Below, piece after piece: positions 12,076 through 49,971 of a stretch of 64,000 nt of DNA. The stretch lies in contig JBPOIT010000008.1 in the NCBI GenBank assembly GCA_052034235.1, positions 79,081 through 143,080 of the forward strand, read 5' to 3'. A program made the translations under genes and the position numbers. The notes beneath the pieces are model-generated. The model searched no databases, had not been told where the DNA came from, and worked only from the letters and a program-made list of their open reading frames with translations. How positions within the stretch are numbered: the first letter of the stretch is position 1; every line of letters starts with the position of its first letter. The stretch comes from Candidatus Levyibacteriota bacterium (GTDB lineage Bacteria; Patescibacteriota; Microgenomatia; Levybacterales; UBA12049).

Positions 12076-12631
12076 ACGAATTAAGCTCCTTTAGTGCTTT
12101 TTTGGCAGAATCTTCTGGGAATGCTGAAAGCATGCTGTGTAAAAATCCTTGAATGATCAGTGCTTTGGCTGAACGTTCAGAAATACCTCGTGAACGAAGA
12201 TAAAACATTTCAAGATCATTCACACGTCCAACAGTAGTCGCATGTCCAGCTTTGATATCATTTTCTAGAATTTCCAAACTCGGCACAGCGCGGCCTTTGG
12301 CTTTGTTTGACAGAAGCAGTAAATGTGCAGCAAGCCATGCATTTGTTCCTTTGGCTCCTGGTTCAATTTTGACAAGGCCGTCATAATTTACCTGAGCATT
12401 ACCGTCCAATGCCCCTTTGACGATAATTTTACTTGTTGTGTCAGGCTGTTCATGATAAATATTGGTGACCAGATCGAGTTTACTGCTCTCTTTACCAAGA
12501 AGTAAAATCAACAGTGTTATACTTGCTCCTTTGCCAGCAAGTTTAATTGAATACGAAAGCTGCGTTTCATCACCCATCCATAAAACGGGCAAAACTCTCT
12601 CTTCATTTGCTTTAATAATTATTTCATTCAT
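12065..12631 (-). CDS. sufD: SufD-like Fe-S assembly protein (short form)
   Basis: SufB/SufD C-terminal beta-helix-like region; position between sufB and sufS; only 188 aa. Confidence 0.55.
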   Translation of the reverse strand: MNEIIIKANEERVLPVLWMGDETQLSYSIKLAGKGASITLLILLLGKESSKLDLVTNIYHEQPDTTSKIIVKGALDGNAQVNYDGLVKIEPGAKGTNAWLAAHLLLLSNKAKGRAVPSLEILENDIKAGHATTVGRVNDLEMFYLRSRGISERSAKALIIQGFLHSMLSAFPEDSAKKALKELNSYVE

Positions 12632-14031
12632 TACCCAACACTTCCTTCCATAGAGAGACTTATCAAACGATTCAGTTCAACCGCATATTCAAGCGGCAGT
12701 TCTTTGACAATCGGTTCAATAAAACCATTGACGATAAGTGAGGTTGCCTGGGCTTCATCAAGTCCGCGTGACATGAGATAAAAGAGTTGCTGTTCTCCAA
12801 TTTTGGAAACTGAAGCTTCGTGTCCTAATGTAACGTCCTGCTCGTTCACAATATTCACAGGATACGTATCTGACCGTGAAAGTTCATCAAGAAGCAGCGC
12901 ATCGCAGCGCACAAACGATTTACTGCCCCGAGCTCCGTTGACAATTTTTACCATGCCCCGGTAACTTGAACGACCGCCATGCATACTGACAGATTTGGAG
13001 GTAATCGTACTCGTTGTATACGGCGCGAGATGAATAGCTTTACCTCCTGCGTCTTGATGCTGGCCCTTGCCGGCAAATGCGAGTGACAACACTTCACCTC
13101 GTGCACCTTTGCCTGCCAAAATGACTGACGGATATTTCATGGTTGCTTTGGAACCCAAATTGCCATCAATCCACTCGCCAAACCCTTCTTCATGAACAAG
13201 CATGCGTTTGGTGACGAGATTGTAGACATTATTACTCCAGTTCTGGATAGTTGTATAGCGTACACGTGCTCCTTTTTTGACAATAATTTCAACAACAGCA
13301 GCATGCAGTGAGTCTGTTGAGTAAATCGGTGCAGTGCAGCCCTCAACATAATGAACATAACTTCCTTCTTCCGCGATAATAAGCGTACGTTCAAATTGGC
13401 CCATGTTGGCGGCATTGATTCTGAAATATGCTTGAAGGGGAATGGTCACTTGAACGCCAGCCGGAACATAGACAAAACTGCCGCCGCTCCAAACAGCTGA
13501 ATTGAGAGCTGCAAATTTATTATCACTCGGCGGGATGACAGTTCCGAAATATTGACGCACAATGTCAGGATATTTTTGAAGCGCAGTGTCCATGTCGACA
13601 AAAATCACTCCCTGATTTTCCCATTCTTTGCGCAAATTGTGATAAATAACTTCCGAATCATACTGCGCACCTACTCCTGCAAGAAATTTCTTCTCAGCCT
13701 CAGGAATACCAATTTTGTCATAGGTGTCTCGGATATCTTTGGGGACATCATCCCATGAACGGGATTTTTTATCAGACGGACTCACATAATAGTAAAGATT
13801 CTCAAAATCAATGCCCGATAAATCTGCACCCCAACTCGGCATCATTTTTTGCTCAAACATCATATGCGCATTGAGTCTGAATTCCCGCATCCATTCGGGT
13901 TCATTTTTGTGGTAAGAAATTGATTCTACCACATCACGGCTTAACCCTTTAGGCGTTTTGAACACAGCATTTTCCGGTTTGTGGAAACCATATTTGTAGT
14001 CTGTTTTAACAACTGGTTGTGGTGGTTTCAT
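12631..14031 (-). CDS. sufB: Fe-S cluster assembly protein SufB
   Basis: 466 aa, typical SufB core; between sufC and sufD. Confidence 0.8.
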
Positions 14032-14792
14032 ACGTATGTTTCATAACCTGATTCTTCAATTTCTTTGGCAAGGACATGATCCCCTGATTTGGCGATTTTG
14101 CCCTTAATCATCACATGAACAAAATCAGGTTTGATGTAATGCAAAATTCTTTGGTAATGGGTGATAAGTACCAATCCCAGTTTATAATCAAGCGCATTAA
14201 TTGCTTTGGCAATGTATTTCAGCGCATCAACATCCAAACCTGAATCAGGTTCATCAAGAACAGCAAATGCTGGTTTGAGCATAGCCATTTGTAAAATCTC
14301 AGCCTTTTTCTTCTCACCACCTGAAAATCCTTCATTGAGAGAACGTTTGGTTAAATCATCTTGAAAGGCAAGTTGTTCAGCACCTTCTTTTAACTGATTT
14401 CGAAAGGCGATAGGGGAAAGTTTTTTTTCGCCAGTTTTTTTATTCTCATTAATCGCCATACGGAGAAAACTTGCATAATTTACGCCAGTCACCTCGACTG
14501 GATACTGAAAACCAAGAAAGAGCCCTGCTTTGGCACGCTGGTCGGGAGTAAGGGTTGTAATATCAGTTCCGTTTAATGTGATCGTTCCTTCAGTAATTAC
14601 ATAGTGTGGATGTCCCATGAGCACCTGGGCAAGTGTTGATTTGCCACCACCATTCGGACCCATGATTGCATGAATCTCACCTTTTTTTATGGTCAAATTG
14701 ACACCGTTGAGGATTTTTTTACCCTCAACTGTGCCTGCATGCACATTTTTAATTACCAGTGTATCTTTCATTTTTTGTGTGATTCTCTCCAT
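14028..14792 (-). CDS. sufC: Fe-S cluster assembly ATPase SufC
   Basis: Walker [10 protein letters not shown], signature FSGGEKKK, Walker [12 protein letters not shown]; 254 aa. Confidence 0.85.
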
Positions 14793-15021
14793 TCTTTTTC
14801 AAGTTCCTGATTAATTTCCTCAACCATATCATCAACTTCCTCATCACTCAGCCCGTGCATTTGGCCGCCAATCTGCAATGTATCATCTTCGCTGAAATAA
14901 CATCCGGCGCAGTGTATGCCATATTCAGCCAAAAGCTCCGCAGCACGCGGACTCTCCTGCGTAAGGATATTTACTTTATCAAATTTCGTTATAACATAAG
15001 GCGCACTCTGTGTTGTCATAA
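14768..15021 (-). CDS. DUF1858-like small redox-disulfide protein
   Basis: GIHCAGCYFSEDDTLQIGGQMHGLSDEEVDDMVEEIN resembles the hybrid-cluster-associated redox disulfide domain; start taken at internal MTTQ (ATG ~15021); upstream part of the 139-aa ORF overlaps nothing conserved. Confidence 0.45.
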
Positions 15022-15035
15022 TACAATACAAAATT

Positions 15036-16091
15036 TTATAAAGCAGCAATAATTTTGTCCGCAAGTTCGGTGGTAGAAAGTACGTGCTGGGTGGCAATGT
15101 CCTTGGTACCGTAACCTTTGTCCAAAATCGTTTGTACTGCATTATACATGGCGTCTCGCTCTTTTTTAAGTCCAAAGCTATATTCAAGCATCATCGCAGC
15201 TGAAAGCATACTGCCGATTGGATTGGCGTAATTTAATCCAGCTGCTTTTGGGAATGAACCATGAATTGGTTCATATAGTGCATTTTTGAGCCCGATTGAT
15301 GCAGAAGGGAGAAGACCGATTGACCCGGTAATGACTGACGCTTCATCTGTCAAAATATCTCCAAACATATTTTCAGTAAGGACAACATCAAACGCACTCG
15401 GGCGTTTGATAATCTGCATTGAAGCATTGTCGACAAACATATATTCGACAGTAATATCAGGATAGTCTTTTTCCATAGCCTGAACCGTTTCGCGCCACAA
15501 TCGTGAAGTCTCAAGCACATTTGCTTTATCAACAACGGTCAGGTGCTTTTTGCGCTTTTGTGCAACTTCAAAACCATATTTTGCAATTCTCACAATTTCC
15601 GGTTTAGAATATTCTGACGTGTCAAAAGCACTCATTCCATTATTAGTTCTTCCTCGTTTACCAAAATAAATGCCACCGATAAGTTCACGAATAACAACAA
15701 AATCGACGTCTTTAATAATTTCAGCACGCAGCGGTGAACGATCTGCAACACTTTGGAATATTTCTATCGGACGGATATTGGCATACAACCCAAGTGCTTT
15801 TCTGATGCCTAAGATTCCTTGTTCCGGCCTCACTTTGGCTGTGGGATCATTATCATATTTGGGATCACCAATCGCGCCGAGGAGGATAGCGTCTGCTTCT
15901 AAACTCAATTTGTGTGTTTCTTTGGGGTAGGGATCTCCCGTTTTATCAATAGCAACGGCACCAATCAAGCCTTCCTGAAAGGTAAACGTATGGCCAAATT
16001 TTTCAGCTGCCTTTTCTAAAAATCGTACTGCCTGTGTGGTTATTTCTGGTCCAACACCATCACCTGGAAGTACTGCAATTGTTTTTTTCAT
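15036..16091 (-). CDS. leuB: 3-isopropylmalate dehydrogenase
   Basis: GDGVGPE N-terminus, isocitrate/isopropylmalate DH signature region, 351 aa, follows leuD. Confidence 0.85.
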   Translation of the reverse strand: MKKTIAVLPGDGVGPEITTQAVRFLEKAAEKFGHTFTFQEGLIGAVAIDKTGDPYPKETHKLSLEADAILLGAIGDPKYDNDPTAKVRPEQGILGIRKALGLYANIRPIEIFQSVADRSPLRAEIIKDVDFVVIRELIGGIYFGKRGRTNNGMSAFDTSEYSKPEIVRIAKYGFEVAQKRKKHLTVVDKANVLETSRLWRETVQAMEKDYPDITVEYMFVDNASMQIIKRPSAFDVVLTENMFGDILTDEASVITGSIGLLPSASIGLKNALYEPIHGSFPKAAGLNYANPIGSMLSAAMMLEYSFGLKKERDAMYNAVQTILDKGYGTKDIATQHVLSTTELADKIIAAL

Positions 16092-16702
16092 GTTGTACGT
16101 GAATAATCATCAGTTCTGGTTTTTTCAAATGTTTCTTTTTCGCGGGTCAGACTTACCAAATAATCAACATCGTCATAGCCGTTCATGATACAGATTTTTT
16201 TGTAAGGGTTTATGTCAAAGGATTCGTAAAGGTCTTTCTTCGGAATACCGATCGTTTGTTTTTCAATATCAACTTCAATAATAGTCTTATGATCTGTTTG
16301 CACTTCTTTAAAGAGTTTGCGCAAAAACACTTCTGAAACCTGAACCGGGAGAAGGGAATTGTTCAGAGCGTTATTTTTAAAGATATCTGCAAAAAAGCTT
16401 GAAACAACAACGTTAAAACCATAATCAGATAACGCCCATGCTGCATGTTCACGACTGGAACCGCAACCGAAATTTCGGCCGGCAATAAGTATTTCCCCTT
16501 TATAATTTGGATGATTGAGGACAAAATGAGGTTTTGGATTCCCTTCAGGATCAAACCGCCAATCTCGAAACACATTCAGCCCAAAACCTTCACGAGTCGT
16601 CGCTTTGAGAAACCGCGCCGGAATAATCTGATCAGTATCCACATCCTGCATATCGAGTGGTACTGCTGTTGAAATAATTTTTGTAAGTTTCTTTTTGGTC
16701 AT
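16088..16702 (-). CDS. leuD: 3-isopropylmalate dehydratase small subunit
   Basis: 204 aa aconitase swivel domain; between leuC and leuB with 4-nt overlaps. Confidence 0.8.
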   Translation of the reverse strand: MTKKKLTKIISTAVPLDMQDVDTDQIIPARFLKATTREGFGLNVFRDWRFDPEGNPKPHFVLNHPNYKGEILIAGRNFGCGSSREHAAWALSDYGFNVVVSSFFADIFKNNALNNSLLPVQVSEVFLRKLFKEVQTDHKTIIEVDIEKQTIGIPKKDLYESFDINPYKKICIMNGYDDVDYLVSLTREKETFEKTRTDDYSRTT

Positions 16703-16704
16703 AT

Positions 16705-18120
16705 TTAAATAAACTTTCTTACATCACTTACTTTCCCAGTAATTGCTGCGACGGCTGCGGTCATGGGACTTACGAGAAATGTTCTTGCACCCGGACCTTG
16801 GCGGCCTTGGAAATTACGATTGGAAGTTGAGACACAATATTTTCCGGCAGGAATTTTATCTTCGTTCATCCCAAGACAGGCAGAACAGCCTGCACCTCGC
16901 ATATCAAATCCTGCTTCGGTAAAAATTGTATTAAGGCCTTCTTTTTCGATTTGTTTGGCAACTTGCGCTGAACCAGGAACGACAAAAACAGTAAGTCCGG
17001 CTGGCTTTTTCTTGCCTTTAACAAGAGCTGCAACTTTTCGAAAATCTTCAATACGCGAATTGGTACAAGAACCGAGAAAAACATAATCAACTTTGTGACC
17101 CAAAAGCTTCTTGCCTTGTTTATCAGTCAAACCCATATACTCCATAGCTTTTAAGAAACTATCTCGTTCCGGTGCTGTTTCAAGTGTATCAACGGTCGGG
17201 ATACGTTTGGTAATACCAATTCCCATACCAGGATTGGTACCATACGTGATCATTGGCTCAATATCTGAGGCATTTATATAAAGTTCACGATCATATTCCG
17301 CTCCTGCGTCAGATGGAAGCGTTTTCCAATATGCTACTGCCTTATCCCACTCTTTTCCCTTAGGTGCAAACTTACGACCTTTCATATAGGCAAATGTTGT
17401 CTCATCAGGTGCAATCATTCCTCCACGAGCACCCATTTCAATACTCATATTACAAATCGTCATGCGGGCTTCCATAGAAAGCGAACGGATTGCTGAACCA
17501 GAATATTCGACAAAATAGCCTGTACCACCTGAGGCTGAGATTTGAGCGATAATATAAAGAATAATATCCTTTGAGCTGACACCTTTGCCTAATTCACCCT
17601 CAATTCGGATATTCATGGTTTTCGGTTTGTACTGGAGAATAGTTTGTGTTGCTAAAACTTGCTCAACCTCGCTTGTTCCGATTCCAAACGCAATCGCTCC
17701 GAATGCACCGTGTGTAGAAGTATGGCTGTCACCACAGACAATTGTCATGCCTGGTTTAGTAATACCAAGTTCCGGACCAATAACGTGAACAATGCCTTGA
17801 TAAGGATGTCCCAAACCATACAAACGAACGCCAAACTCTTTGCAATTACTTTCAAGCATCGCGACCTGTTTGCGTGACATTTCTTCTTTTATGGGTTTAT
17901 CCTGATCTTTGGTGGGAACATTGTGATCCATTGTCGCCCACGTACGATCAAGTCGGGAAACTTTTAACCCGCGCTTTCTTAAACCATTAAATGCCTGAGG
18001 ACTGGTTACTTCATGAATCAGATGTGCGTCAATATAAAAAACTGCGGGATAACTTTCCTGTTGATGAACAACATGTGCGTTCCAGATCTTTTCGAATAAC
18101 GTTTGTGGTTTCTTTGCCAT
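16705..18120 (-). CDS. leuC: 3-isopropylmalate dehydratase large subunit
   Basis: aconitase family Cys ligands (GSCTNS, CGPCIG-like CSACLGMN), 471 aa. Confidence 0.85.
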
Positions 18121-18137
18121 AGATTTAAACTAACATG

Positions 18138-19628
18138 CTACACAATTTTATTTAATGCATCCAAATATGCTTTGACTGATGCGACGACGATATCTGAATC
18201 TGCTCCGAAGCCGTAAAACAGAACGCCCTTATGAGCGATTTGGATATGTACTTTCCCTGTGTCATCGCTGCCTCGGGTAAGAGCCTGGACCAAATATTCT
18301 TCAAGCACAACTTTTTTCTTAAGGATTTTATCAATAGCATGAAACGCAGAGTCGACCGGTCCATTTCCAGTAGCTGTTGAAACTTCTTCCTTACCGTTTA
18401 ACAATAATTTCACTGTTGCCATAGGTGCAAGAGGAGTGCCACAAACAACTTGCAAAAGGGTAAGTTTGGCACCAGCATCATTGGCCGAATCGCCCATAAG
18501 TATTCGCAAATCATCATCGTTGATATCTTTTTTCTTATCAGCAACGTTTAAAAATTCCTGATAAACACTATCAAGCTTTTCCTGAGTCAATTTATACCCC
18601 AAACGCTCCATGTGATGCTTCAATGCTGCTCTTCCACTTCTTGCAGTAAGTGCGAGTGAAGATTCTTTGATACCCACATCTTCAGGACTCATAATTTCAT
18701 AGGTAAAGCGATTTTTTAAAACCCCATTCTGATGAATACCTGAGGAATGAGCAAATGCATTGCGCCCGACAATTGCTTTGTTTGCTTGTACTGGCATACG
18801 CATGAGACGAGAAACCAAACGTGACGTTGGATAGATCTTTTTTGTATTGATATTGGTAACTGCATTGAGATCTTTACGGGTTTTTAAAATCATAACAGCC
18901 TCTTCAAGTGACGTATTACCAGCACGTTCTCCAACACCATTTATGGTTACTTCAAACTGACGAGCGCCGTTTTGGACTGCTGCGATTGTGTTCGCTGTTG
19001 CCATACCAAGATCATTATGACAATGAACACTTACAATAACCCTGTCAATTCCCTTTACATTCTCAAAGAGATATTTAATTTTTGCACCAAATTCATTTGG
19101 CAAGCAATAACCTGTGGTATCCGGAATATTAACCGTTGTTGCGCCAGCTTGAATTGCTGCTTGGATAAATTGCGCAAGAAATGCATTCTCTGTACGCCCT
19201 GCATCCATGGCTGAGAACTCAACATCCTGCGTAAACTTTTTGGCATATTTGACGGCCTCGACAGCTTGCTCCGTGATTTTTTCGCGCGTTGAGCGGAACT
19301 GATGAATGATATGGATGTCAGAACTACTGATAAAGGTGTGGATTCGTTTGTGTTTGGCAAATTTCAACGATTCAGCTGCTGCATCAATGTCTCCCTTTAT
19401 CGCTCGTGATAATGCGGTAATCACAGGCTCTTTCACATTTTTTGAAATTTCCTGGACTGACTTTAAATCACCTGGACTTGAGATAGGGAAGCCTGCCTCG
19501 ATGATATCAACACCCAAAGCCTCAAGCGATTGTGCCACTTCAATTTTTTCAACAGTATTCAGCTGGCAACCCGGTACCTGCTCACCATCACGAAGTGTCG
19601 TATCAAAGATAAATATTTTATTTTTCAT
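18138..19628 (-). CDS. leuA: 2-isopropylmalate synthase
   Basis: [10 protein letters not shown]-terminus, [13 protein letters not shown] motif, C-terminal LeuA dimerisation domain; 496 aa. Confidence 0.85.
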
Positions 19629-20463
19629 TATGTTTTGTTTCTACTTTAGTAAAGATATTTTTCCTAAAAAACAGTATATACACCATGCCAATATATCCTA
19701 CCATTATAGCAAGTCTTGCCCCGCTAAAATGCTGGTCGATGCCGGTAAATGTCTGCAGCGCATGACCAACCAAACTGTGTGAATCCGGCAGGAACGGCAT
19801 ATGCAGCGGCACAATTTCATACAGTTCGACATGCCAATAAATTTCAAACAATTCAGTGATACCGTTTTGCACCATCGCAGCTCCCAGCAGTATAATCATA
19901 TACTCAGTAATTTGAAAGACTCGCTTCACTGAAAATTTCAGATAAGCCATACTGGTAGCCAAACCAACTGCACCGGCGCTGAGAAAACCGGTAAACAATC
20001 CTGCCATATTCTGAAAGAACACTGAGAAAAGAGAAGTACTTGCCGTGAACAATGCAATCTCAAACCCTTCACGAACGACTAAAAATAAAATGGTAAAAAA
20101 GAGTGAAACATCAAATACGTTCTTCTTCAGTTTTTCAGCGGCTTTTTTAATAACCGACATTTTTTGCACATGCATGACTTTGTGCAGTGAAAAAATAACA
20201 TAAGCCAAGAAACAACCTGAAAAGATCATCAAATAACTCTCAAGCACTTCAGCATTTTCTTCTGTCAAAACAGCCCGAGCGCTGTCACCAAAAGCAAATG
20301 TTCCGATTGCCAGCACAAATGCAATTGCCATACCCACTCCGGCTGCAAGAACAATTTCTTTTTCCTTTCTCAGCTGCAGGGACCTCGAAAGTCCCCAAAA
20401 GACACCTACAATCAAAAAGGCTTCCAAAAATTCTCTAAAACTAATCAACGCTGTTGTAAACAT
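19618..20463 (-). CDS. FTR1/EfeU-family permease-like membrane protein
   Basis: Two RExxE motifs in predicted TM helices ([10 protein letters not shown] and [10 protein letters not shown]); multi-TM; overlaps leuA start by 11 nt; lies between Leu leader attenuator and leuA. Confidence 0.5.
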
Positions 20464-20480
20464 AAAATCGATTTAAGCCA

Positions 20481-20502
20481 TAAAAAAACCGCCTTCCGGC
20501 GG
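20481..20502 (-). terminator. intrinsic terminator of Leu attenuator (ccgcc-GGAA-ggcgg + U7) immediately upstream of FTR1-like gene
   Basis: minus-strand RNA cccgccggaaggcgg followed by ttttttt, then ATG of 19618-20463 gene 18 nt later. Confidence 0.65.
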
Positions 20503-20541
20503 GTTTGTTTGTCGAATTTTTAACCAAACAAATCTCGCCGT

Positions 20542-20589
20542 TTACACGGTAAGGAGAGCAAGGTTAAGTAGAATATTTTGGCTGTTCAT
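20542..20589 (-). CDS. Leu-rich leader peptide MNSQNILLNLALLTV (15 aa)
   Basis: 5 Leu in 7 consecutive codons; sits between a TTGACG-17-TACAAT promoter and the terminator. Confidence 0.55.
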   Translation of the reverse strand: MNSQNILLNLALLTV

Positions 20590-20596
20590 ATGAATC

Positions 20597-20625
20597 ATTG
20601 TAACAAGACCTTAATTTCCCGTCAA
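20597..20625 (-). promoter_or_regulatory. sigma70-like promoter TTGACG-17nt-TACAAT for leu leader
   Basis: read on minus strand: ttgacgggaaattaaggtcttgttacaat. Confidence 0.5.
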
Positions 20626-20633
20626 GCATTAAT

Positions 20634-21557
20634 TTAGAATTGCACCTTTGTGCACCAGCTTATGTAGGCTTCGTCTTGGCCTCTGACTACTGAGAAGAAT
20701 TTATCTTGGAGTTTTTTGGTTAATAGGCCGATTTTTTCTGAGATGACTCTTTTATCGATGCTATGAACCCAAGCTACTTGGCATCCAGTTCCTGAAAGGA
20801 AGATTTCGTCAGCGACGTAGATTTCTGTACGCTCGATCGGGCGGGCTTCAACTGGGATTCCCATGTCTTTTGCGAGCTGTATTACTGAGCGGCGGGTGAT
20901 GCCTTCGAGAACGCCTTCTGAGACTGTGGGTGTTATCAAAATACCATCACGGATCATAAAGAAATTTTCAGCTGAACCTTCTGCCACATGACCATCTTTA
21001 TTAAGCATAATAGCCTCATCATAACCGTTGTCTGTAGCTTCTTTTCGTGCTAGTGCTGAATTGATATAGCCACCGGAAGCTTTGGCACGGGAAGGGATAG
21101 CGTTATCTGAAATTCGCTGCCACGTAGAAACACCCATATTCAAACCTTTACTGACAGGCAAATATTCACCAAGTGGGATCATGTAGAGTGTAAAATCGAG
21201 TGTGGTATTGGCAAGATTTGGACCGAGTTCTAAATTGCCGACATAAGCAAACGGACGGAAATAGACGTCAGTTGTTGGTTTATTTTTTTTGAGAAGATCA
21301 AGCGTAATCGTTTTGAGCTGGTCTTTATCATAGGGAAAACCACAGCCTAATATCCTAACACTTGAGAGAAAACGCTTGTAATGGTCATCCAAACGAAATA
21401 CATAGACAGCTTTTTCTTTTTGATTGTAATACCCGCGAATTCCGCCAAAAATACCTGTGCCGTATTGCAGTGCATTGGTTTGAACTGACACTTTCGCGTC
21501 TTCCATTTTGACTACTTTATTCTCAAAAAATGCGTAGGGAAAAGATCCGGTTTTCAT
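20634..21557 (-). CDS. ilvE: branched-chain amino acid aminotransferase
   Basis: class IV aminotransferase fold, 307 aa, within ilv cluster. Confidence 0.8.
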   Translation of the reverse strand: MKTGSFPYAFFENKVVKMEDAKVSVQTNALQYGTGIFGGIRGYYNQKEKAVYVFRLDDHYKRFLSSVRILGCGFPYDKDQLKTITLDLLKKNKPTTDVYFRPFAYVGNLELGPNLANTTLDFTLYMIPLGEYLPVSKGLNMGVSTWQRISDNAIPSRAKASGGYINSALARKEATDNGYDEAIMLNKDGHVAEGSAENFFMIRDGILITPTVSEGVLEGITRRSVIQLAKDMGIPVEARPIERTEIYVADEIFLSGTGCQVAWVHSIDKRVISEKIGLLTKKLQDKFFSVVRGQDEAYISWCTKVQF

Positions 21558-21558
21558 A

Positions 21559-21852
21559 TTATTTCAAAAATGTCGGGCCGACTTTGCATGGTTTAATTTC
21601 AATTTTCTCCCAAACTTTATTTACCACATATGGTTCAACAAGCAACCATTCATCAAGTTCAGTTCTACTAGGAAAATCCATCACCATAACTGAACCATTC
21701 ATGTGGCCATCAGTATCAAGCGTTGCTATGCCATACAAATAGCTTCCTGCAGCTTTCATCTGATCACCTAATGCAACATGCTTTTCTCTAACATCAAGAC
21801 GTCTTTTTAGACCTCCATCTTTATAATCATGAGCTATTATTAGAAATTGCAT
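21559..21852 (-). CDS. YciI-like small protein
   Basis: 97 aa, MQFLIIAHDYKDGG...HVALGDQMKAAG pattern of YciI/DGPF family; inserted between ilvD and ilvE. Confidence 0.5.
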   Translation of the reverse strand: MQFLIIAHDYKDGGLKRRLDVREKHVALGDQMKAAGSYLYGIATLDTDGHMNGSVMVMDFPSRTELDEWLLVEPYVVNKVWEKIEIKPCKVGPTFLK

Positions 21853-21864
21853 GGCACCTCCATT

Positions 21865-23661
21865 TTACCACATTCCAGCACCATCTATGGCTTGTTTGGC
21901 TGTTAATCTCATGCGTTTAAGCAGTCTGTTATTTATTGTTTTAACAAAAGGATGCATTCCGCCATTTTTCTCAGCTGTCTGATCCCAAATCTTTTTGCGA
22001 GCTTTAAAGATGACCGGATCGTCAAGTTGTACACAATCCATACTGTCTTTGTTGATATCAATGATAATATCATCACCGTCTTCAACAAGGGCAATAGGGC
22101 CGCCGAGGAATGCTTCAGGGCCGACATGGCCAATGACGAGTCCGACTGAACCGCCTGAGAAACGAGCATCAGTCATAAGGGCAATGGTAATATTCTTTTC
22201 GCGACAAAGTGTTGTAATGCGTGACGTCGGATCAAGCATCTCAGGCATGCCTGGAGCGCCACGAGGACCCTCGTAGCGAATGACAACCATATCTTTGTCC
22301 TGAAATACATCTGGAGTTTTTTCAAGTGTATCGAGAAGTTCTCTCTCACTATTAAAAACACGAGCTTTCCCTTTGAACACACCGTTTTCCATTCCTGTTT
22401 CAACACCTGCAACTTTGATGACTGCACCGCCTTTGGGAGCGAGATTGCCTGTAAGCAAACGCAATCCGCCAGTTTTTTTAAATGGTTTTTTCACGGACAA
22501 AATAACCTCACCGTCGGGTTTTGGTGGAGCTAAACGTTTTATCTGCTCTGAAAGTGTTTCGCCTGTACACGTCATGCAATTACCATCCAAAAAGCCTGCA
22601 TCTAACAGTTCTTTAACAATCACCGGCAGACCACCTTTTTCTTCGATATCAACCATCGAATACGCGCCAAACGGTCTGGCATTTATGAGAACAGGCAAAC
22701 TGTGGGAGAGTTTATTAAATTCTTTTTGAGTCATCACATCTTCCCACAGATCAAATCCAGCAGCCCTCGCGATTTCAACAGAGTGGAGGACGACATTGGT
22801 TGAACCGCCCATAGCAATCGCAACTGCAAGCGCGTTACGAAGTGAAGCCGGCGTGACGAGGTTTTTGGGTCTGATACCTTTTTTGGTCATAGTGAGAAGA
22901 CAATCAATCAGCTGCTCAGGAAATTCTGTCACTCTTCGTGGATCATCTGACGTCGGGGTTACCATATGCAGCGGTTCCAAACCAACAAGTGCGATAAAGG
23001 TTTGCATCGTGTTATACGTAAACATCCCTCCACAGCTTCCCTGACCACAACAAGCATTGAGAGCAACACGTTTTTTCTTATCTTCGTCTGGATCACCTGC
23101 AACTTGAAAAGCACTTACGATATCAATTCGCTCGTGCGTTTGAGGATCAAGGCCAGGTTTGATTGAACCGTCTGAGAAAATGACTGCTGGCTGGTTGTGT
23201 TCCAAAATTGCAGCAAGTGTTCCAACGGGAGGTTTGTCACAGGCAACAACTGAAATACAGCCCTGTACTTTGCTTGCACTTAAATGAATGGTGATTGCAT
23301 CGTGTGTTACTTCACGACCGATGAGGGAAAAGCGCATTTCATCAGTTCCATTGAGTTGGCCGTCCGAAACACCGATTGTGTAAGCTGGAGGGATAAGACG
23401 AGCTGGAAGATTGTCTTTTTTTATGCGAGCTGCCAGCGCTTTATGGATGATTTTTACTTTTTCTGTAACCCCCACGTAACATTGACTATCACCGAGACTG
23501 CCAGTTACTGCCCACACAGGTTCGTGAATTTTGATGGGGGATTGGCCGAGGAAACGAGCAGTTCCCACGCGCTGTACATCACGTCCGGGGTTGTCCACGA
23601 CAAATTCAGACGTATCAACAGTTTTCTCTTCACACTGACAATTTTCTCCACAGCTTTTCAT
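21865..23661 (-). CDS. ilvD: dihydroxy-acid dehydratase
   Basis: 598 aa ILVD/EDD family; Cys ligand region CGQGSCGGMFTYNTMQT-like. Confidence 0.85.
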   Translation of the reverse strand: MKSCGENCQCEEKTVDTSEFVVDNPGRDVQRVGTARFLGQSPIKIHEPVWAVTGSLGDSQCYVGVTEKVKIIHKALAARIKKDNLPARLIPPAYTIGVSDGQLNGTDEMRFSLIGREVTHDAITIHLSASKVQGCISVVACDKPPVGTLAAILEHNQPAVIFSDGSIKPGLDPQTHERIDIVSAFQVAGDPDEDKKKRVALNACCGQGSCGGMFTYNTMQTFIALVGLEPLHMVTPTSDDPRRVTEFPEQLIDCLLTMTKKGIRPKNLVTPASLRNALAVAIAMGGSTNVVLHSVEIARAAGFDLWEDVMTQKEFNKLSHSLPVLINARPFGAYSMVDIEEKGGLPVIVKELLDAGFLDGNCMTCTGETLSEQIKRLAPPKPDGEVILSVKKPFKKTGGLRLLTGNLAPKGGAVIKVAGVETGMENGVFKGKARVFNSERELLDTLEKTPDVFQDKDMVVIRYEGPRGAPGMPEMLDPTSRITTLCREKNITIALMTDARFSGGSVGLVIGHVGPEAFLGGPIALVEDGDDIIIDINKDSMDCVQLDDPVIFKARKKIWDQTAEKNGGMHPFVKTINNRLLKRMRLTAKQAIDGAGMW

Positions 23662-24122
23662 TTTTTTGAATATTCTGCAAGTTCTAAAATAATGCCTTCC
23701 GGTCCGTAGAAATAACAGAGTTTTTTCTTTGACGGAGCATAATCCTGAATCTCACTAAAAAAGGTTACGTTTCTCTTCTTTAATTGTGCAACAACCGCTT
23801 CAATGTTTTCAACCTCAAAAGCAAGATGTCTCAATCCGTGATGATTGGCTTTACTTATCTTTTCCTCTGAATCATCAACCGGTGAATCGTATTGTATCAG
23901 TTCAAGATTGGTTTGAGCAGCATCCAAACGAAGCGCGCAATATTCTGCTTTGACATTTTTCAGTTGAGTAACGGCATCAACCCAACCTCCAGTCAAAGTT
24001 CCTTCGTGAACAATGCTAAATCCTAAATCCAAAAAGAATTTTTTGGCAGCAGGCAAATCTGTAACGACGATATTTATATGATCAATTTTGAGAAGAGACG
24101 CAGAGGATGTTCGCTGCTTCAT
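23658..24122 (-). CDS. glyoxalase/VOC family protein
   Basis: 154 aa, two beta-alpha-beta-beta-beta modules (IDHINIVVTDL...; GLRHLAFEVENIE); overlaps ilvD start by 4 nt and ilvC end by 1 nt. Confidence 0.55.
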   Translation of the reverse strand: MKQRTSSASLLKIDHINIVVTDLPAAKKFFLDLGFSIVHEGTLTGGWVDAVTQLKNVKAEYCALRLDAAQTNLELIQYDSPVDDSEEKISKANHHGLRHLAFEVENIEAVVAQLKKRNVTFFSEIQDYAPSKKKLCYFYGPEGIILELAEYSKK

Positions 24123-25201
24123 TATTTTTTCGTTTTAGCTGCTGGCTTAATTGCTTTTTGATACTCTGGGCGAAGTTTGCGAACTTGTTTGCCTGTTTGC
24201 CACAGTTCACTTTCATCCATTTCTTTGAGTTCTTTTGCCAATTTTTCGCGGTAATCTGGTTTACTGTTTGCTTTGATAGTTATTTCAGCTTCCTTGCCGG
24301 ATTTGACGCTGTCATACAGTTCTTTAAAGACTGGTTCAACAGCTTTTCTGAATTTTGGCTTCCAATCAAGTGCGCCGCGCTGTGCTGTTGTTGAACAATT
24401 TGCAAACATCCAGTCCATACCATTCTCACCGATAAGAGGGATAAGACTTTGTGTTGCTTCTTCAACGGTTTCGTTAAATGCTTCGGATGGAGAGTGGCCT
24501 TTCTTGCGAAGCAAATTATATTGTGCTTCCATAAGACCAGCAATTGCTCCCATCAAAACACCACGCTCACCGGTTAAATCACTGTACACTTCGTTTTTGA
24601 AAGTGGTTTCAAACAAGAATCCTGAACCAATGCCGATACCCATAGATTTAACTTTATCAGCTGCTTTACCAGTTGCGTCTTGATACACGGCAAAACTTGC
24701 ATTGATACCACGACCTTCAAGAAAAATCTTGCGAACGGTACGTCCTGAACCTTTTGGAGCAACCAAAATAACATCAACATCTTTTGGAGGAACGATACCT
24801 GTTTGTTTGGCATAGGTAACCGCAAACCCATGAGAGAAATATAACGTTTTACCAGCGGTTAAATATTTTTTAACCGTTGGCCAGAGTGCAATTTGTGCTG
24901 CGTCTGAGAGGAGAACGCACAAAATGGTACCACGCTCCGCTGCTTCTTCAATTGAGAAAAGTGTTTTACCTTCAACCCAGCCGTCTTCTTTTGCCTTTTT
25001 GTAAGAAGCTGATGGTTTTCTTTGTCCGACAATGACATTAAAACCATTGTCTCTGAGATTTAACGCTTGTGCTGGTCCTTGCACGCCGTAACCAATAACA
25101 GCAATGGTTTCATTCTTTAAAACCTTTTTTGCTTTTTCAAGTGTAAATTCTTCTCTTGTTACGACGTCTTCTTTTACGCCGCCGAAATTCATTTTTGCCA
25201 T
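24122..25201 (-). CDS. ilvC: ketol-acid reductoisomerase
   Basis: IGYGVQGPAQALNLRDNG NADPH-binding N-terminus; 359 aa. Confidence 0.85.
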   Translation of the reverse strand: MAKMNFGGVKEDVVTREEFTLEKAKKVLKNETIAVIGYGVQGPAQALNLRDNGFNVIVGQRKPSASYKKAKEDGWVEGKTLFSIEEAAERGTILCVLLSDAAQIALWPTVKKYLTAGKTLYFSHGFAVTYAKQTGIVPPKDVDVILVAPKGSGRTVRKIFLEGRGINASFAVYQDATGKAADKVKSMGIGIGSGFLFETTFKNEVYSDLTGERGVLMGAIAGLMEAQYNLLRKKGHSPSEAFNETVEEATQSLIPLIGENGMDWMFANCSTTAQRGALDWKPKFRKAVEPVFKELYDSVKSGKEAEITIKANSKPDYREKLAKELKEMDESELWQTGKQVRKLRPEYQKAIKPAAKTKK

Positions 25202-25263
25202 AGAGTTCCTTTCAAAATATCCTAAACAATTAGAATTTTTAGATTATACAACCAAATCTTAAT

Positions 25264-25773
25264 CTATTCAATATCTTTATCGTCTTTTAAGACGGCAATT
25301 CTGCCAGATCTGACGAATTCCAAGATACCAAATGGTTTGAGTTTTGAAAATAATAAATTAACTTCTTTTTCCGAGCCAGTCAGTTCAACAGTAATTGAGC
25401 CTGCTCTGTTCAAAACGATGGGTGTATGAAATTCGTGAGCAATTTTACCTATTTCATATTCTTGTTTCTTATCTTTGACTGAAACTTTAATAAGCGCAAC
25501 TTCCTTATACACTAACTCACTATTTGACTTTGCCATCACTTTGACGACTTCAATAATTCGATAAAGATGTTTGACTGTTCTATCAACAAGCTGTCTGTCA
25601 GCATTTACTGCAACGGTAAAGCGTGAAATACCTGGTTGTTCTGTCTCTGAAACGGTAAGGCTTTCAATATTTACCTTTCTACGCAAAAATAAATCAGAAA
25701 TACGATAAAGCACGCCCGGCTTGTTCTCGGCGAAAATAATAATGGTATATAAATTTAAGTCAGTCAATGTCAT
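25264..25773 (-). CDS. ilvN: acetolactate synthase small (regulatory) subunit
   Basis: ACT domain ENKPGVLYRISDLFLRRKVNIESLTV; 169 aa; follows ilvB. Confidence 0.8.
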   Translation of the reverse strand: MTLTDLNLYTIIIFAENKPGVLYRISDLFLRRKVNIESLTVSETEQPGISRFTVAVNADRQLVDRTVKHLYRIIEVVKVMAKSNSELVYKEVALIKVSVKDKKQEYEIGKIAHEFHTPIVLNRAGSITVELTGSEKEVNLLFSKLKPFGILEFVRSGRIAVLKDDKDIE

Positions 25774-25776
25774 AGG

Positions 25777-27465
25777 TTATTTCAATCGTACCTCCGCAAC
25801 GCTTGCACCTGTTGGCACCATTGGGAACACATTTTCTTCTTTTCTGACAACAATTTCCAAAACCTGCGGGCCTTTCGCTGCAATCAACCGGTCTAATGCT
25901 TTACTTAAATCTGCACGCTTTTCAACTTTGTGGGCATCGAGTCTGAAACCTTTGGCAACTGCTACAAAATCAGGATTATTCATTTCAGTAAACGAATAAC
26001 GTTTTTCAAAAAACATTTCCTGCCACTGCCGCACCATACCTAAGAAATTATTGTTCAGAATAATAATTTTGACGGGGATTTGTTCCTGTGCAATTGTTGC
26101 AAGTTCTTGAATATTCATTTGAAAACTTCCGTCTCCGTTTATCGCAAAAACTTCTTCTTTTGGCCTCCCAACCTTGGCACCCATAGCTGCAGGAAGTGCA
26201 AAACCCATCGTACCTGCACCTCCAGAAGTAACAAAGGTATCAGGTTTTTGGTATTCGTAATACCTGGCTGTCATCATTTGATGCTGACCGACATCAGCCA
26301 CAATAATTGCTTCTCCTTTTGTTTTATCTGAGAGCATTTTGATAACTTCAGGCATACTGATTTCGCCAGTCAGCGGATCAGTTTCGTGTTTATATACTGT
26401 TTCGTATTCTTTCTTTTTGCACGCAGCAAATTTCGCAAGCCACTGGGGATGTGTTTGTTTTTTGACGTGCTTGGTGAGTGCCTTCAGTGCAGCTTTCGCA
26501 TCTGCCGCAATAGCGATATCAACCTGAATTATTTTATTTATTTCTGCTGGATCGATATCAACATGGATAATTTTTGCATTTGACGCATAATCTGAAACTC
26601 TACCTGTGACGCGGTCATCAAATCGCATACCGACGGCGATTATCACATCAGCTTCGTTGGTTAACAGATTTGGACCATAATTGCCATGCATGCCGAGCAT
26701 CCCAGCGTATAATGGGTGAGAAGCAGGGAATGCAGACAATCCGTGCAGTGTTACACCCACAGGAATACCGGTTTTTTCGACAAACGTTATGAGTTCTTTT
26801 TCTGCTTTGGAAATCAAAATACCGTGCCCAATCAGCATGAATGGTTTTTTGGCATTATTTATAACTTCTGCGGCTTCTTCAATCTGCATCATATCAGGCT
26901 CTTTTTCAGGATGATAACTTGGCAATGAAGTGATTTTTTTGTATGTAAACTCCATTAATTCGATTTGTGCATTTTTGGTGATATCAACCAAAACTGGACC
27001 TGGACGGCCAGAATTGGCGATATAAAAGGCTTTGGCCATGACTTCAGGAATTTCCGCCGCTCGGGTAACCTGATAATTCCATTTGGTGATTGGGGTAGTA
27101 ATACCGATAACGTCAGCTTCCTGAAATGCATCAGTTCCGATGACAGCTGCCGCAACTTGTCCAGTAATACAAACCAGAGGAACTGAATCCATCTGAGCAT
27201 CAACAATTGCGGTAACTAAATTGGTGGCACCAGGTCCTGATGTAACTAAACAAACTCCCTGGCGTCCTGTTACTCGAGCATATCCTTCAGCAGCATGTCC
27301 AGCACCCTGCTCATGTCTCACTAAAATATGGCGCAATTTATCTTTGTAATCATACAACGCGTCATAAGTCGGCATGATTGCACCGCCAGGATAACCGAAG
27401 ATTACTTCGACACCTTCGTGCACCAAAGATTCCATTATTGCTTGTCCGCCTGTTATTTTTTTCAT
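25777..27465 (-). CDS. ilvB: acetolactate synthase large subunit
   Basis: TPP-enzyme motifs; start taken at MKKITGGQAIMESLVHEGVE (ATG 27465) because upstream 29 codons of ORF overlap the leader/terminator. Confidence 0.85.
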   Translation of the reverse strand: MKKITGGQAIMESLVHEGVEVIFGYPGGAIMPTYDALYDYKDKLRHILVRHEQGAGHAAEGYARVTGRQGVCLVTSGPGATNLVTAIVDAQMDSVPLVCITGQVAAAVIGTDAFQEADVIGITTPITKWNYQVTRAAEIPEVMAKAFYIANSGRPGPVLVDITKNAQIELMEFTYKKITSLPSYHPEKEPDMMQIEEAAEVINNAKKPFMLIGHGILISKAEKELITFVEKTGIPVGVTLHGLSAFPASHPLYAGMLGMHGNYGPNLLTNEADVIIAVGMRFDDRVTGRVSDYASNAKIIHVDIDPAEINKIIQVDIAIAADAKAALKALTKHVKKQTHPQWLAKFAACKKKEYETVYKHETDPLTGEISMPEVIKMLSDKTKGEAIIVADVGQHQMMTARYYEYQKPDTFVTSGGAGTMGFALPAAMGAKVGRPKEEVFAINGDGSFQMNIQELATIAQEQIPVKIIILNNNFLGMVRQWQEMFFEKRYSFTEMNNPDFVAVAKGFRLDAHKVEKRADLSKALDRLIAAKGPQVLEIVVRKEENVFPMVPTGASVAEVRLK

Positions 27466-27476
27466 AATATAAACAT

Positions 27477-27497
27477 AAAAAAACCGCCTTTCGGCGG
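27477..27497 (-). terminator. intrinsic terminator of ilv attenuator (ccgcc-GAAA-ggcgg + U7)
   Basis: minus-strand RNA caagcaccgccgaaaggcggttttttt immediately upstream of ilvB ATG. Confidence 0.65.
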
Positions 27498-27532
27498 TGC
27501 TTGATTGGTCCAGGTCACAATCAATCCCGCCT

Positions 27533-27580
27533 CTAGGAGGCAAGAGCGACAATGACTAGAAGAGCTGCTGAATTTCTCAT
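27533..27580 (-). CDS. BCAA-rich leader peptide MRNSAALLVIVALAS (15 aa)
   Basis: LLVIVAL run of Leu/Val/Ile codons between strong promoter and terminator upstream of ilvB. Confidence 0.55.
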   Translation of the reverse strand: MRNSAALLVIVALAS

Positions 27581-27589
27581 GTTACAATC

Positions 27590-27617
27590 ATTCTATCACA
27601 AGCCCTAAGCTTGTCAA
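27590..27617 (-). promoter_or_regulatory. sigma70-like promoter TTGACA-16nt-TAGAAT (with TGn) for ilv leader
   Basis: minus strand: cttgacaagcttagggcttgtgatagaat. Confidence 0.5.
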
Positions 27618-27634
27618 GGACTACTATCAGGAGA

Positions 27635-29335
27635 CTAAGCCGCTTCTAAAACCGGGAAAATATTTCCAGGCGCCATAACACCATGAGGATCAAATGCTTC
27701 TTTAAACGCTCTCATTTCTGCAATTCCTTTATCACCAACCAATTCTCTTAGTAATGCCTGTTTCACAGGATGTTCTCCAACCGCATGTTCTGCAGTACCT
27801 ACTCCTCCCAACTCTCGAATTGCTCTCGTACTTACTTGTAATAATATACTAGCTGCTGCAGTAGCTTCTTCCTGCGTTTTAGGCATTGCGTTTCGATGCC
27901 CGTTTCCTTCACCATGCCCCCATTCGACACTTTGAATATCTCCCAAAGCTGTTTCATACCAACCAGATAGTTTTTCTAAATCATCTGGGTTCACACACAC
28001 ATCTGTTCCACTTTTTTTTATTCCACGCCCGCGCATGATTCGATTTACTGTATCAGGAACATCTTCTCGTATACCTATAAAATATTGCTGGGTTTGCTTA
28101 TCTTCAGGTATGGCACCTAATACTCTCGAGTCATCATTTACATTTATACCAACCGCAGTGATGTTATCACCCAATAACTCTAAGGCTGTCATATCATCAC
28201 CAGGAAGTTCCATTTGTACCAAAACGAGCGCATTTCCTTTTTCACCTGGTGGATTGAAGCTACCATTTTCAGCAATCAGTTGTCTCGCACCAGACCCAAT
28301 ATATTCAACAGCACTTAGGCCACCTGGTTCTTTCGTCTCACGTTTTTCTGGCTGTTGTTGACGCAATCTCCGCACAAGTTCGTGCATCTGCTGATCATTG
28401 TCACACACAACAAGTGCCATTGCTGTAGGAGGCTCTGGAAGAACACGGAGCGATAATTTTGTAATTGTCCCTAGTGTACCCTCACTTCCTACCAGCATAT
28501 CAATCAAATCAACTTCTCCTTTTTCATTTCGCTTTGTGTTATAACCCGCAGAAATCTTTGGGACGTCAGGCATGGCATATGTAGGAACTGGAACTTTTCT
28601 TCTTGAAGTACCATCTGGACTGACAATTTCAAAATAATCAGGATCACCTTCTTTTTCACCTTTTTGAGAGAATGACTCACCTCGTTTAACATTTATAATT
28701 TCACCTGTAGCCAAGACCATTTCGATTCCTTCTACAAATTCATTTAATTTTCCATATTTGTAATTAAGAGCACCCCCATTATTTGTTGAAGCACCACCAC
28801 CCACAGTTGCACGATCATATGTTGGCGCACAAGGAAGAAAAAGGTCTTCTTGTTTTAGTTTCTTATTGAGATCACTAAATGTTACTCCGGGTTCAACTGT
28901 GACGACTTTTTCACCGTGCAGGGTTGTTTCTACCTCACCAATTCCGGTAAGTTCCTGCATATTAATCAGTACATCATTATGTGGGACAGCGGCACCGGTA
29001 AGAGAAGATTTTGCCCCAAAGGCAACAATACCTCTTACTTCTCCGTCAGCTTTCAAGCTGACTGCTTTGCCCATGACAAACGCCACTTCAGCAGCACCTG
29101 AACCCGGTTTCATTGTGTACATTACAGGGGATTCACCTTTAAAACCCGCTTCATCACCAACATATGTTTGTATTGTTAATTGATCAGATGTTGCGTCGAT
29201 TCTAGAGAAATCAGGTCTTTCTGTTGCATACCTCGTTCTAATTTCATTTCGTGGTCTGCCTGAACGCTCATGTAAGGGACTATCTGGCGTTGCTAAAGGC
29301 TGTGGTCTATAGATATCTGGTCTCACGCTGAGCAT
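27635..29335 (-). CDS. FAD-linked oxidase (GlcD / D-lactate dehydrogenase-like)
   Basis: PCMH-type FAD-binding region (TVGGGASTNNGG) and C-terminal oxidase domain; 566 aa. Confidence 0.6.
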   Translation of the reverse strand: MLSVRPDIYRPQPLATPDSPLHERSGRPRNEIRTRYATERPDFSRIDATSDQLTIQTYVGDEAGFKGESPVMYTMKPGSGAAEVAFVMGKAVSLKADGEVRGIVAFGAKSSLTGAAVPHNDVLINMQELTGIGEVETTLHGEKVVTVEPGVTFSDLNKKLKQEDLFLPCAPTYDRATVGGGASTNNGGALNYKYGKLNEFVEGIEMVLATGEIINVKRGESFSQKGEKEGDPDYFEIVSPDGTSRRKVPVPTYAMPDVPKISAGYNTKRNEKGEVDLIDMLVGSEGTLGTITKLSLRVLPEPPTAMALVVCDNDQQMHELVRRLRQQQPEKRETKEPGGLSAVEYIGSGARQLIAENGSFNPPGEKGNALVLVQMELPGDDMTALELLGDNITAVGINVNDDSRVLGAIPEDKQTQQYFIGIREDVPDTVNRIMRGRGIKKSGTDVCVNPDDLEKLSGWYETALGDIQSVEWGHGEGNGHRNAMPKTQEEATAAASILLQVSTRAIRELGGVGTAEHAVGEHPVKQALLRELVGDKGIAEMRAFKEAFDPHGVMAPGNIFPVLEAA

Positions 29336-29386
29336 TATAACATACTTATTTGACGTGAAAGAAAGCTGAGGAGTATACTTCTTTTT

Positions 29387-49531: not shown

Positions 49532-49882
49532 ATGAGTAGAATTAAACGAGGAATCGTATCACGAAGAAAACATAACAAACTGTTGGGACTTACCAAGGGT
49601 TATCGCGGCACAAAGAGTAAACTCGTCAAAGTCGCAAAAGAAGCATACCTGCATGCAGGACAATATGCTTATGAAGGCCGCAAAGACAGAAAGCATGATT
49701 TCCGCACACTTTGGATTGTGAGAATCAGTGAAGCAATCAAACTCGAAGGCATGAACTACAGTGTGTTCATCAACAAACTGAAGAAATCAAACATCGAACT
49801 CGACAGAAAGATCCTCAGCGACCTCATCGTCAACGACCCAGCCGCATTCAAACGCGTAGTTGACACCGTCAAAACCGTATAG
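49532..49882 (+). CDS. rplT: 50S ribosomal protein L20
   Basis: [26 protein letters not shown] typical L20 N-terminus; 116 aa. Confidence 0.85.
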
Positions 49883-49899
49883 TAGGATAAAACAGTACT

Positions 49900-49971
49900 A
49901 TGAATTTCTCAGCAAACAACTATTTTTGGTTTTACTTTACTCCCTCCAAGGGGGGTTCGCTCGTGGCATAA
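49900..49971 (+). CDS. aromatic-residue leader peptide MNFSANNYFWFYFTPSKGGSLVA (23 aa)
   Basis: six consecutive aromatic codons Y-F-W-F-Y-F; AGGA 12 nt upstream; followed by alternative hairpins and intrinsic terminator; occupies the position of pheM downstream of rplT. Confidence 0.55.
   Translation: MNFSANNYFWFYFTPSKGGSLVA

Follow-up and report, generated by a model that had tools for sequence, protein, structure and literature searches.

A leucine-rich leader-peptide attenuator heads a unit of an FTR1-type permease gene and leuACDB in a Levyibacteriota genome and probably couples iron import to leucine synthesis

In a stretch of 64,000 nucleotides (nt) from contig JBPOIT010000008.1 of a Candidatus Levyibacteriota bacterium (hereafter the window), the leucine biosynthesis genes leuACDB are preceded by a gene for a membrane protein of the FTR1 family, which is itself preceded by a short regulatory element, the leu leader. 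We hold, with moderate confidence, that this element is a Leu-specific, ribosome-mediated attenuator driving a transcription unit led by a genuine iron permease, such that leucine starvation would co-induce iron import. Coordinates are positions in the 64-kb window, and the genes of the array are all encoded on the minus strand. In 5′ to 3′ order the array comprises an ilv attenuator, ilvB, ilvN, ilvC, a VOC gene, ilvD, a YciI-like gene, ilvE, the leu element, FTR1, leuACDB, a DUF1858-like gene and sufCBDS.

Structure of the leu leader

The leu regulatory element, from promoter through U-tract, extends over positions 20625-20482 of the minus strand. A promoter scan located a sigma-70-type promoter composed of TTGACG (20625-20620), a 17-nt spacer and TACAAT (20602-20597), which matches the consensus at 10 of 12 positions, has a TG preceding the -10 box and begins 8 nt past the stop codon of ilvE (20634-21557), the final gene of the upstream ilvBNC-VOC-ilvD-yciI-ilvE unit. 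The leader open reading frame (ORF), MNSQNILLNLALLTV followed by a stop codon, occupies 20542-20589 and contains 15 codons (ATG AAC AGC CAA AAT ATT CTA CTT AAC CTT GCT CTC CTT ACC GTG, then TAA). Its ATG, at 20589, lies 7 nt past the -10 box, a spacing so close that the leader mRNA is probably leaderless or nearly so. The leader displays no Shine-Dalgarno sequence, a signal that few genes of the array possess in any case. Within the stretch LLNLALL (20571-20551), five of the seven codons specify Leu and all five are of the CUN type. UUA and UUG are absent from the leader, although together they provide 39% of the Leu codons in the array, and a CUN-reading tRNA-Leu(UAG) gene is found in the window at 1955-2037 on the plus strand. 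The notion that the leader uses rare Leu codons was rejected, as CTT and CTC make up 30% and 16% of array Leu codons, respectively.

Folding of the leader RNA revealed three possible structures, formed by segments 1:2, 2:3 and 3:4. In the 1:2 hairpin the final leader codons pair with the sequence right behind the stop codon. The antiterminator (2:3; 20497-20540) is held together by CGGCG/CGCCG and UUUGUUUG/CAAACAAA pairings, presents a folding energy of -17.1 kcal/mol (z = -3.7 against shuffles) and has its 5′ arm 1 nt past the stop codon. The intrinsic terminator (20482-20502), identified by scan and folding, consists of CCGCC-GGAA-GGCGG, with a GC stem of 5 bp (20502-20489), followed by U7 (20488-20482). 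The 3′ arm of the antiterminator includes the 5′ arm of the terminator and the two structures are thus mutually exclusive. Between the end of the U7 tract and the FTR1 ATG (20463) there are 18 nt. No Rfam family was matched at E ≤ 1 across positions 14000-30000, and window-wide only two tRNAs reached the gathering score. The Rfam leucine operon leader model (Leu_leader, presumably accession RF00512) showed no match to the leu leader, nor did Rfam return a T-box leader for this element, which is only ~108 nt long.

Conservation of the attenuator in related loci

Related loci were grouped into type A, in which FTR1 is followed by leuA, and type B, with the order ilvE-FTR1-DUF1858-sufCB; metagenome loci were retrieved by motif-derived patterns. 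Nine distinct type-A loci have visible upstream DNA, namely the window, L001, L002, L090, L093, L094, L110, L156 and L169/L170. All nine contain a TTGAC-type promoter, a Leu-rich leader and a hairpin with U6-7, and in each of them the leader ATG is positioned 6-12 nt past the -10 box. The peptide ends in (I)LNL(A/T)LL(T/A)V immediately before the stop in eight loci, including the window, and in NLLLLNF in L170, while its codons vary synonymously (CTA/CTT/CTC, AAC/AAT, GTG/GTT/GTC) and the stop is either TAA or TAG. Terminator stems also vary among loci (CCGCC/GGCGG, CCCCGC/GCGGGG, CCCGC/GCGGG), with hairpin and U-tract kept. An antiterminator of -17 to -22 kcal/mol, its 5′ arm 0-5 nt past the stop codon, was observed in all eight loci folded, and in 8/8 loci tested its energy lies 3.1-5.8 standard deviations below that of dinucleotide shuffles. 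These figures come from per-sequence folding, because in the MAFFT alignment of eight leaders the terminators of L090, L093 and L110 are slightly out of register and the RNAalifold count of three compensatory pairs therefore understates covariation. The leader is present in all nine of these type-A loci and absent from L151, L159, L161 and L162, where FTR1 is followed by DUF1858-sufC. Conserved over nine diverged loci, the leu leader arrangement exceeds what chance would be expected to produce. The attenuator thus appears to be real, and we infer that it responds to leucine.

Individual loci present variations on this plan. In L002 (7880-7908) and L170 (5375-5403) a perfect Shine-Dalgarno sequence (AGGAGG or AAGGAGG), spaced 9-10 nt from the FTR1 ATG, is embedded in the terminator loop and 3′ arm, so that terminator formation could there also mask the initiation of FTR1 translation. 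The equivalent place in the window is occupied by a vestigial ATG-GCT-TAA (20481-20473). A further type-A locus, L089, whose FTR1 and LeuA are 73% and 85% identical to those of the window, respectively, displays, in place of the usual terminator, a hairpin with no U-tract in the 89 nt visible 5′ of FTR1, up to the contig end (1-89).

FTR1 as the first cistron of the regulated unit

The FTR1-like gene (20463-19618) encodes 281 residues and is followed by leuA (18138-19628), which codes for 2-isopropylmalate synthase (NCBIfam match of 738 bits) and whose start at 19628 overlaps the FTR1 stop by 11 nt (ATGAAAAATAA). The same 11-nt overlap (ATGAAAAATAA/G) was found in 9/9 type-A loci, though their FTR1 proteins are only 54-87% identical. 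In L002, L090, L094, L110 and L170 the U-tract directly abuts the FTR1 ATG and leaves no space for a separate promoter. The genes leuC (18120-16705), leuD (16702-16088) and leuB (16091-15036), assigned from the ORF list and from homology to related loci, follow in tight packing. A terminator scan identified none between ilvE and the leu promoter, and after leuB no convincing terminator was seen before DUF1858-sufCBDS. Insertions in relatives sit between ilvE and the promoter, and none falls among leader, FTR1 and leuA. They comprise a mobile-looking DUF3800 gene in L001 (3121-3849) and a mobile-looking two-gene cassette resembling a toxin-antitoxin pair in L093 (about 480-1035), the unit being intact in both. 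In L090 it is not ilvE but another gene that precedes the leu unit. Here the ORF sharing the 11-nt overlap with FTR1 begins MKNRSSTFFKEEINSNN (1219-1290), unlike the usual LeuA start, and similarity to LeuA sets in ~70 nt later; the LeuA start of L090 may have undergone an N-terminal insertion or a frameshift.

An earlier sequence-only reading of this DNA had described the promoter, the 15-codon leader, the terminator, the 18-nt gap, the two RExxE motifs of the permease and the 11-nt overlap, and all of these are found on the minus strand where it had placed them. It had regarded the element as a Leu-specific leader-peptide attenuator, which its anatomy and its conservation in nine related loci support, and as the second of its kind, the first being indeed located upstream of ilvB (27617-27466). 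Its proposal that the attenuator precedes the FTR1-like gene rather than leuA is borne out in all nine type-A loci, the window among them. FTR1 might have been missing between leader and leuA in relatives; it is there, with the same overlap, in every related locus of the candidate phyla radiation (CPR) found. The proposed role of FTR1 as first cistron of the Leu-regulated unit gains support from the invariant overlap and the abutting U-tracts, and FTR1 is, judged from sequence, a member of that unit.

Identity of the permease

The product of the FTR1-like gene matches the Pfam family FTR1 (PF03239) with 52 bits against a cutoff of 25.3 (E = 8e-14). It also aligns end to end with the NCBIfam EfeU equivalog, scoring 76 bits where the cutoff is 255. 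Two RExxE motifs are present, REFLE at residues 10-14 and REGFE at residues 131-135. An AlphaFold model (predicted local distance difference test score, pLDDT, of 72) comprises seven long helices, predicted to be transmembrane (TM), with REFLE in TM1 and REGFE in TM4. Both motifs are invariant in an alignment of 23 sequences that mixes leu-linked and unlinked copies. When conserved columns were defined as those at least 90% conserved in 71 unlinked homologues (96 columns), 85 of the 96 were found to be kept in the leu-linked clade and none was systematically replaced. Annotation assigns the FTR1 homologues to Candidatus Roizmanbacteria or Patescibacteria, and the majority of those with 49-63% identity are standalone genes in unrelated surroundings, many of them in Roizmanbacteria or Patescibacteria genomes. 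One such standalone homologue, L005, is adjoined by a cupredoxin gene; in type-A and type-B loci no extracytoplasmic partner was identified next to FTR1. Taken together, the family match, the predicted topology and the retained motifs suggest that the protein is most likely a genuine FTR1/EfeU-type iron permease.

Proposed mechanism and the link to iron

Transcription is predicted to start at, or a few nt from, the leader ATG. With ample charged tRNA-Leu, a ribosome would translate through to the stop codon and cover the 5′ arm of the antiterminator, the terminator would form and polymerase would stop 18 nt before FTR1. When tRNA-Leu charging is low, a ribosome stalled on the CUN Leu codons would cover segment 1, leaving segments 2 and 3 to pair and allowing read-through. 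FTR1 would then be translationally coupled to leuA through the invariant overlap, with leuCDB next. In a leader that is not translated, the 1:2 hairpin and the terminator would form, and the leu terminator would consequently also end read-through from the ilv operon. As no terminator is visible past leuB, the unit may extend into DUF1858-sufCBDS.

IlvD and LeuCD are iron-sulphur (Fe-S) enzymes, and the Suf system assembles Fe-S clusters. Under leucine starvation, iron import would therefore be induced along with an Fe-S-dependent pathway, a plausible benefit given that IlvD and LeuCD need Fe-S clusters. Iron uptake is thus probably switched on together with leucine synthesis.

Several observations weigh against this interpretation. 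The leucine dependence, the transcription start and the read-through are all deduced from sequence. The last two Leu codons of the leader lie 3-4 codons before the stop, so that stalling there may not free the antiterminator and the earlier Leu codons would be needed. An iron permease, and possibly a suf operon, gated by leucine seems odd and would require basal read-through or internal promoters, both hypothetical. Iron as the substrate is suggested by family membership, while the EfeU score lies far below the equivalog cutoff. No EfeO, EfeB, P19, cupredoxin or ferroxidase partner was detected among the 47 window ORFs scanned with Pfam; a sequence search of the Protein Data Bank (PDB) with the permease returned nothing at E ≤ 1, and a Foldseek search of the AlphaFold model against the PDB nothing below E = 0.2, leaving the family with no solved structure for comparison. 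For the metagenome loci, fetched as they were with patterns derived from the motifs, part of the motif conservation is a product of the retrieval itself. Finally, a neighbour-joining tree of 85 FTR1 sequences does not place types A and B as sisters, and since its deep nodes are poorly resolved it does not decide whether the two types share an ancestor.

Other attenuators and neighbouring genes

The ilv attenuator (27466-27617, minus strand), upstream of ilvB, displays the promoter TTGACA-16-TAGAAT, the leader MRNSAALLVIVALAS followed by a stop, and the terminator ACCGCC-GAAA-GGCGGT-U7. Its leader peptide is of the Ile/Leu/Val type. The ilv and leu leaders are identical at 112 of 174 aligned positions (z = 9.4 against shuffles) and are apparently paralogous. 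A mechanical ORF list starts ilvB (27465-25777, minus strand) at a TTG inside the ilv leader (27552), while the real start is the ATG at 27465. A third attenuator, at 49860-50027 on the plus strand, comprises TTGACA-17-TAGGAT, the leader MNFSANNYFWFYFTPSKGGSLVA with a Tyr/Phe/Trp run ahead of its stop, and the terminator ACCCCC-AACTAA-GGGGGT-T7. Seventeen nt beyond this attenuator begins an aromatic cluster (50044-60147) encoding 3-dehydroquinate synthase, 5-enolpyruvylshikimate-3-phosphate synthase, shikimate dehydrogenase, dehydroquinase, chorismate synthase, an aminotransferase and a prephenate dehydrogenase/dehydratase fusion, followed by pheS and pheT. The 64 kb thus contain three attenuators of the same build, each heading a pathway that matches its codons.

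Two genes of other families lie inside the ilv operon, a VOC/glyoxalase-family gene (23658-24122) and a YciI-like gene (21559-21852), both on the minus strand. Of the relatives, L001 retains the YciI-like gene, and L002 and L169 lack both. The DUF1858-like gene (15019-14768, minus strand) is located between leuB and sufC, encodes 83 residues with a CxxC motif and overlaps sufC by 25 nt. Together with sufC, sufB, sufD and sufS it forms a co-directional block (10873-15019, minus strand) with gaps of ≤16 nt.

Alternative explanations and origin of the arrangement

The alternative that survives best accepts both the attenuator and the iron permease as genuine and denies their coupling any adaptive meaning, basal read-through giving enough permease; we consider it possible, if somewhat unlikely. 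According to this explanation, an ancestral ilv...ilvE-FTR1-DUF1858-suf array gained leuACDB behind FTR1 and a duplicated leader before it, or the reverse occurred by deletions. It draws on the type-B loci L151, L159, L161 and L162 (probably also L146), which display the order ilvD-ilvE-FTR1-DUF1858-sufC-sufB, with 15-25 nt from ilvE to FTR1 and with neither a leader nor, at that place, any leu genes. These loci show tight coupling of FTR1 to DUF1858-sufC, the FTR1-DUF1858 gap being -4 or +1 nt. The same DUF1858 gene that follows leuB in the window stands directly behind FTR1 and before sufC in L151, L159, L161 and L162, and with this shared neighbour types A and B are set apart by the leuACDB block and the leader before FTR1, and by nothing else. 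In L106, L114 and L160, FTR1 lies beside suf genes without ilv genes. The paralogy of the ilv and leu leaders in the window fits the same history.

A neutral history is also favoured by the affinities of the leu genes. LeuA was compared with GTDB species representatives, where almost all matches listed are from Bacteroidota; the closest LeuA homologues among them are Bacteroidota proteins of 60-67% identity, with the gene order ilvDBNC-leuACD-leuB. The Bacteroidota genomes L010, L011, L015, L025 and L035 and a Lentisphaerota-like metagenome-assembled genome (L050) have a Leu-rich leader and a terminator directly before leuA, exemplified in L050 by MTSAFILSNLLTLALRPAGG, with a strong terminator and its U-tract behind it. 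No FTR1 gene was found within 10 kb of leuA in these genomes. LeuA, LeuC and IlvC of the window are most similar, among the matches listed, to Bacteroidota proteins (60-74% identity; loci L009-L088). IlvD presents only 32-35% identity to Bacteroidota IlvD. These values suggest that the branched-chain pathway is a mosaic, partly acquired horizontally, in a lineage that usually lacks one. FTR1 appears to be a native gene of this CPR (Patescibacteria) lineage, tied to a suf/Fe-S neighbourhood, and the leu genes have a probable foreign origin. Within this clade they probably came to be nested between FTR1 and suf, with a Leu-specific copy of the leader landing before FTR1.

A coupling without adaptive meaning is less easily reconciled with three further points. 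The arrangement and its invariant overlap have been kept while FTR1 diverged to 54% identity; insertions pile up 5′ of the promoter and never within the unit; and, were the coupling harmful, an essential metal importer should have escaped from its place behind a strong terminator. The present evidence does not separate adaptive coupling from neutral inheritance of gene order.

It is very improbable that the FTR1-like protein has been repurposed to carry leucine, a 2-oxo acid or another metabolite of the pathway, as the sequence-only reading had proposed for an amino-acid or 2-oxo-acid transporter. Its strict and conserved place as first cistron of a Leu-regulated unit would agree with such a role, as would the lack of EfeO, EfeB, P19 or ferroxidase genes among the window ORFs scanned and the score below the EfeU cutoff. 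Repurposing is nonetheless unsupported, because the motifs and the conserved columns are kept in the leu-linked copies, every one of which has both RExxE motifs, and because relatives without leu genes at this place have the gene coupled to DUF1858-sufCB. Close homologues likewise lie beside suf or in contexts without amino-acid genes, and we know of no FTR1-family member that carries organic substrates. The topology and motif analysis that the same reading had called for, with seven predicted helices and both motifs kept, gives no sign of a change of function. As both IlvD and LeuCD depend on Fe-S clusters, which Suf makes, iron supply offers a more economical link between the permease and its neighbours than does a new substrate.

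Least credible of all is the explanation that no attenuator exists, the hairpin and U7 being the terminator of the ilv operon, the promoter an ordinary FTR1-leu promoter and the Leu-rich mini-ORF a coincidence: although the hairpin is the sole terminator past ilvE, promoter-like and terminator-like matches in the region are no commoner than in shuffles and the leader lacks a Shine-Dalgarno sequence, the terminator sits downstream and not upstream of the promoter, nine loci conserve the peptide encoded by the ORF while its codons change synonymously, a mutually exclusive antiterminator lies right behind the stop codon in every locus folded, the element is missing exactly where leuA is missing and present in L090 without ilvE upstream, and two further attenuators built alike, one with Ile/Leu/Val and one with Tyr/Phe/Trp codons, stand before matching pathways.

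Significance and comparison with known systems

Most amino-acid biosynthesis is believed to be missing from CPR bacteria, and to our knowledge their gene regulation has not been studied. In the window the branched-chain and the aromatic amino-acid pathways are both complete, each with an attenuator of matching codons at its head, and the leu attenuator provides a concrete, testable case of an amino-acid signal controlling a metal transporter. If the coupling is functional, a minimal cell would adjust its iron import to what its Fe-S enzymes need while having no regulator devoted to iron; if it is a mere legacy of gene order, it would illustrate how insertion into an operon can rewire the control of an unrelated gene. 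A search of the literature turned up no paper on leader peptides or attenuators in the CPR, and for FTR1 in Roizmanbacteria or Patescibacteria it yielded only a passing mention. What appears to be new, no paper describing it having been found, is the CPR host, the three attenuators in 64 kb and the conservation of a metal permease as first regulated cistron; the mechanism itself is classical.

Leader-peptide attenuators of leu and ilv genes are known from the actinobacterial leuA and ilvB leaders (PMC1262725, PMC5784534), and the ilv-leu operon of Staphylococcus aureus has a Leu-rich attenuator peptide (PMC5794164). The classical leu/ilv attenuators of enterobacteria, actinobacteria and S. aureus share with the window a short ORF with a Leu run, exclusive 1:2, 2:3 and 3:4 hairpins and a terminator before the first structural gene. 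The window element differs from classical leu attenuators in having no Rfam match, in its CPR host and in that the first regulated cistron is a metal permease and not leuA. The ilvB leader of Corynebacterium diphtheriae has been shown to be leaderless (PMC5784534), and like it the leu leader of the window has its ATG at or near the transcription start, which in the window is a predicted one. The leuA genes of Bacteroidota and L050 resemble the window in their Leu-rich leader and strong U-tract terminator; unlike in the window, that terminator directly precedes leuA and FTR1 is absent.

The window FTR1 is similar to EfeU of the EfeUOB system and to yeast Ftr1p of Ftr1-Fet3 in its length of ~280 residues, its seven TM helices and its RExxE motifs in TM1 and TM4. 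Canonical EfeU/Ftr1 systems have EfeO/EfeB, P19 or multicopper oxidase partners (PMC9174327, PMC3577903); in contrast with EfeUOB, Ftr1-Fet3 and FtrABCD, the window FTR1 has no adjoining partner gene. Canonical efeUOB operons are described as iron-regulated (PMC3577903), whereas the window FTR1 is apparently under a leucine attenuator.

The closest parallel in physiology is fungal. In Aspergillus fumigatus the regulator LeuB ties leucine biosynthesis to iron acquisition, which rises upon leucine shortage, a connection put down by the authors to the fact that the fungal dihydroxyacid dehydratase and isopropylmalate isomerase depend on Fe-S clusters (PMC6221358). A bacterial counterpart of this cross-regulation in a reduced-genome lineage, in which tRNA-Leu charging would regulate iron uptake and possibly also Fe-S assembly through a ten-gene unit that includes leucine synthesis, is offered tentatively, as we judge it unlikely in that full extent. 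The two systems would in any case differ in their means, as A. fumigatus LeuB belongs to a eukaryotic transcription-factor network, while the link in the window would be made by co-transcription behind an attenuator.

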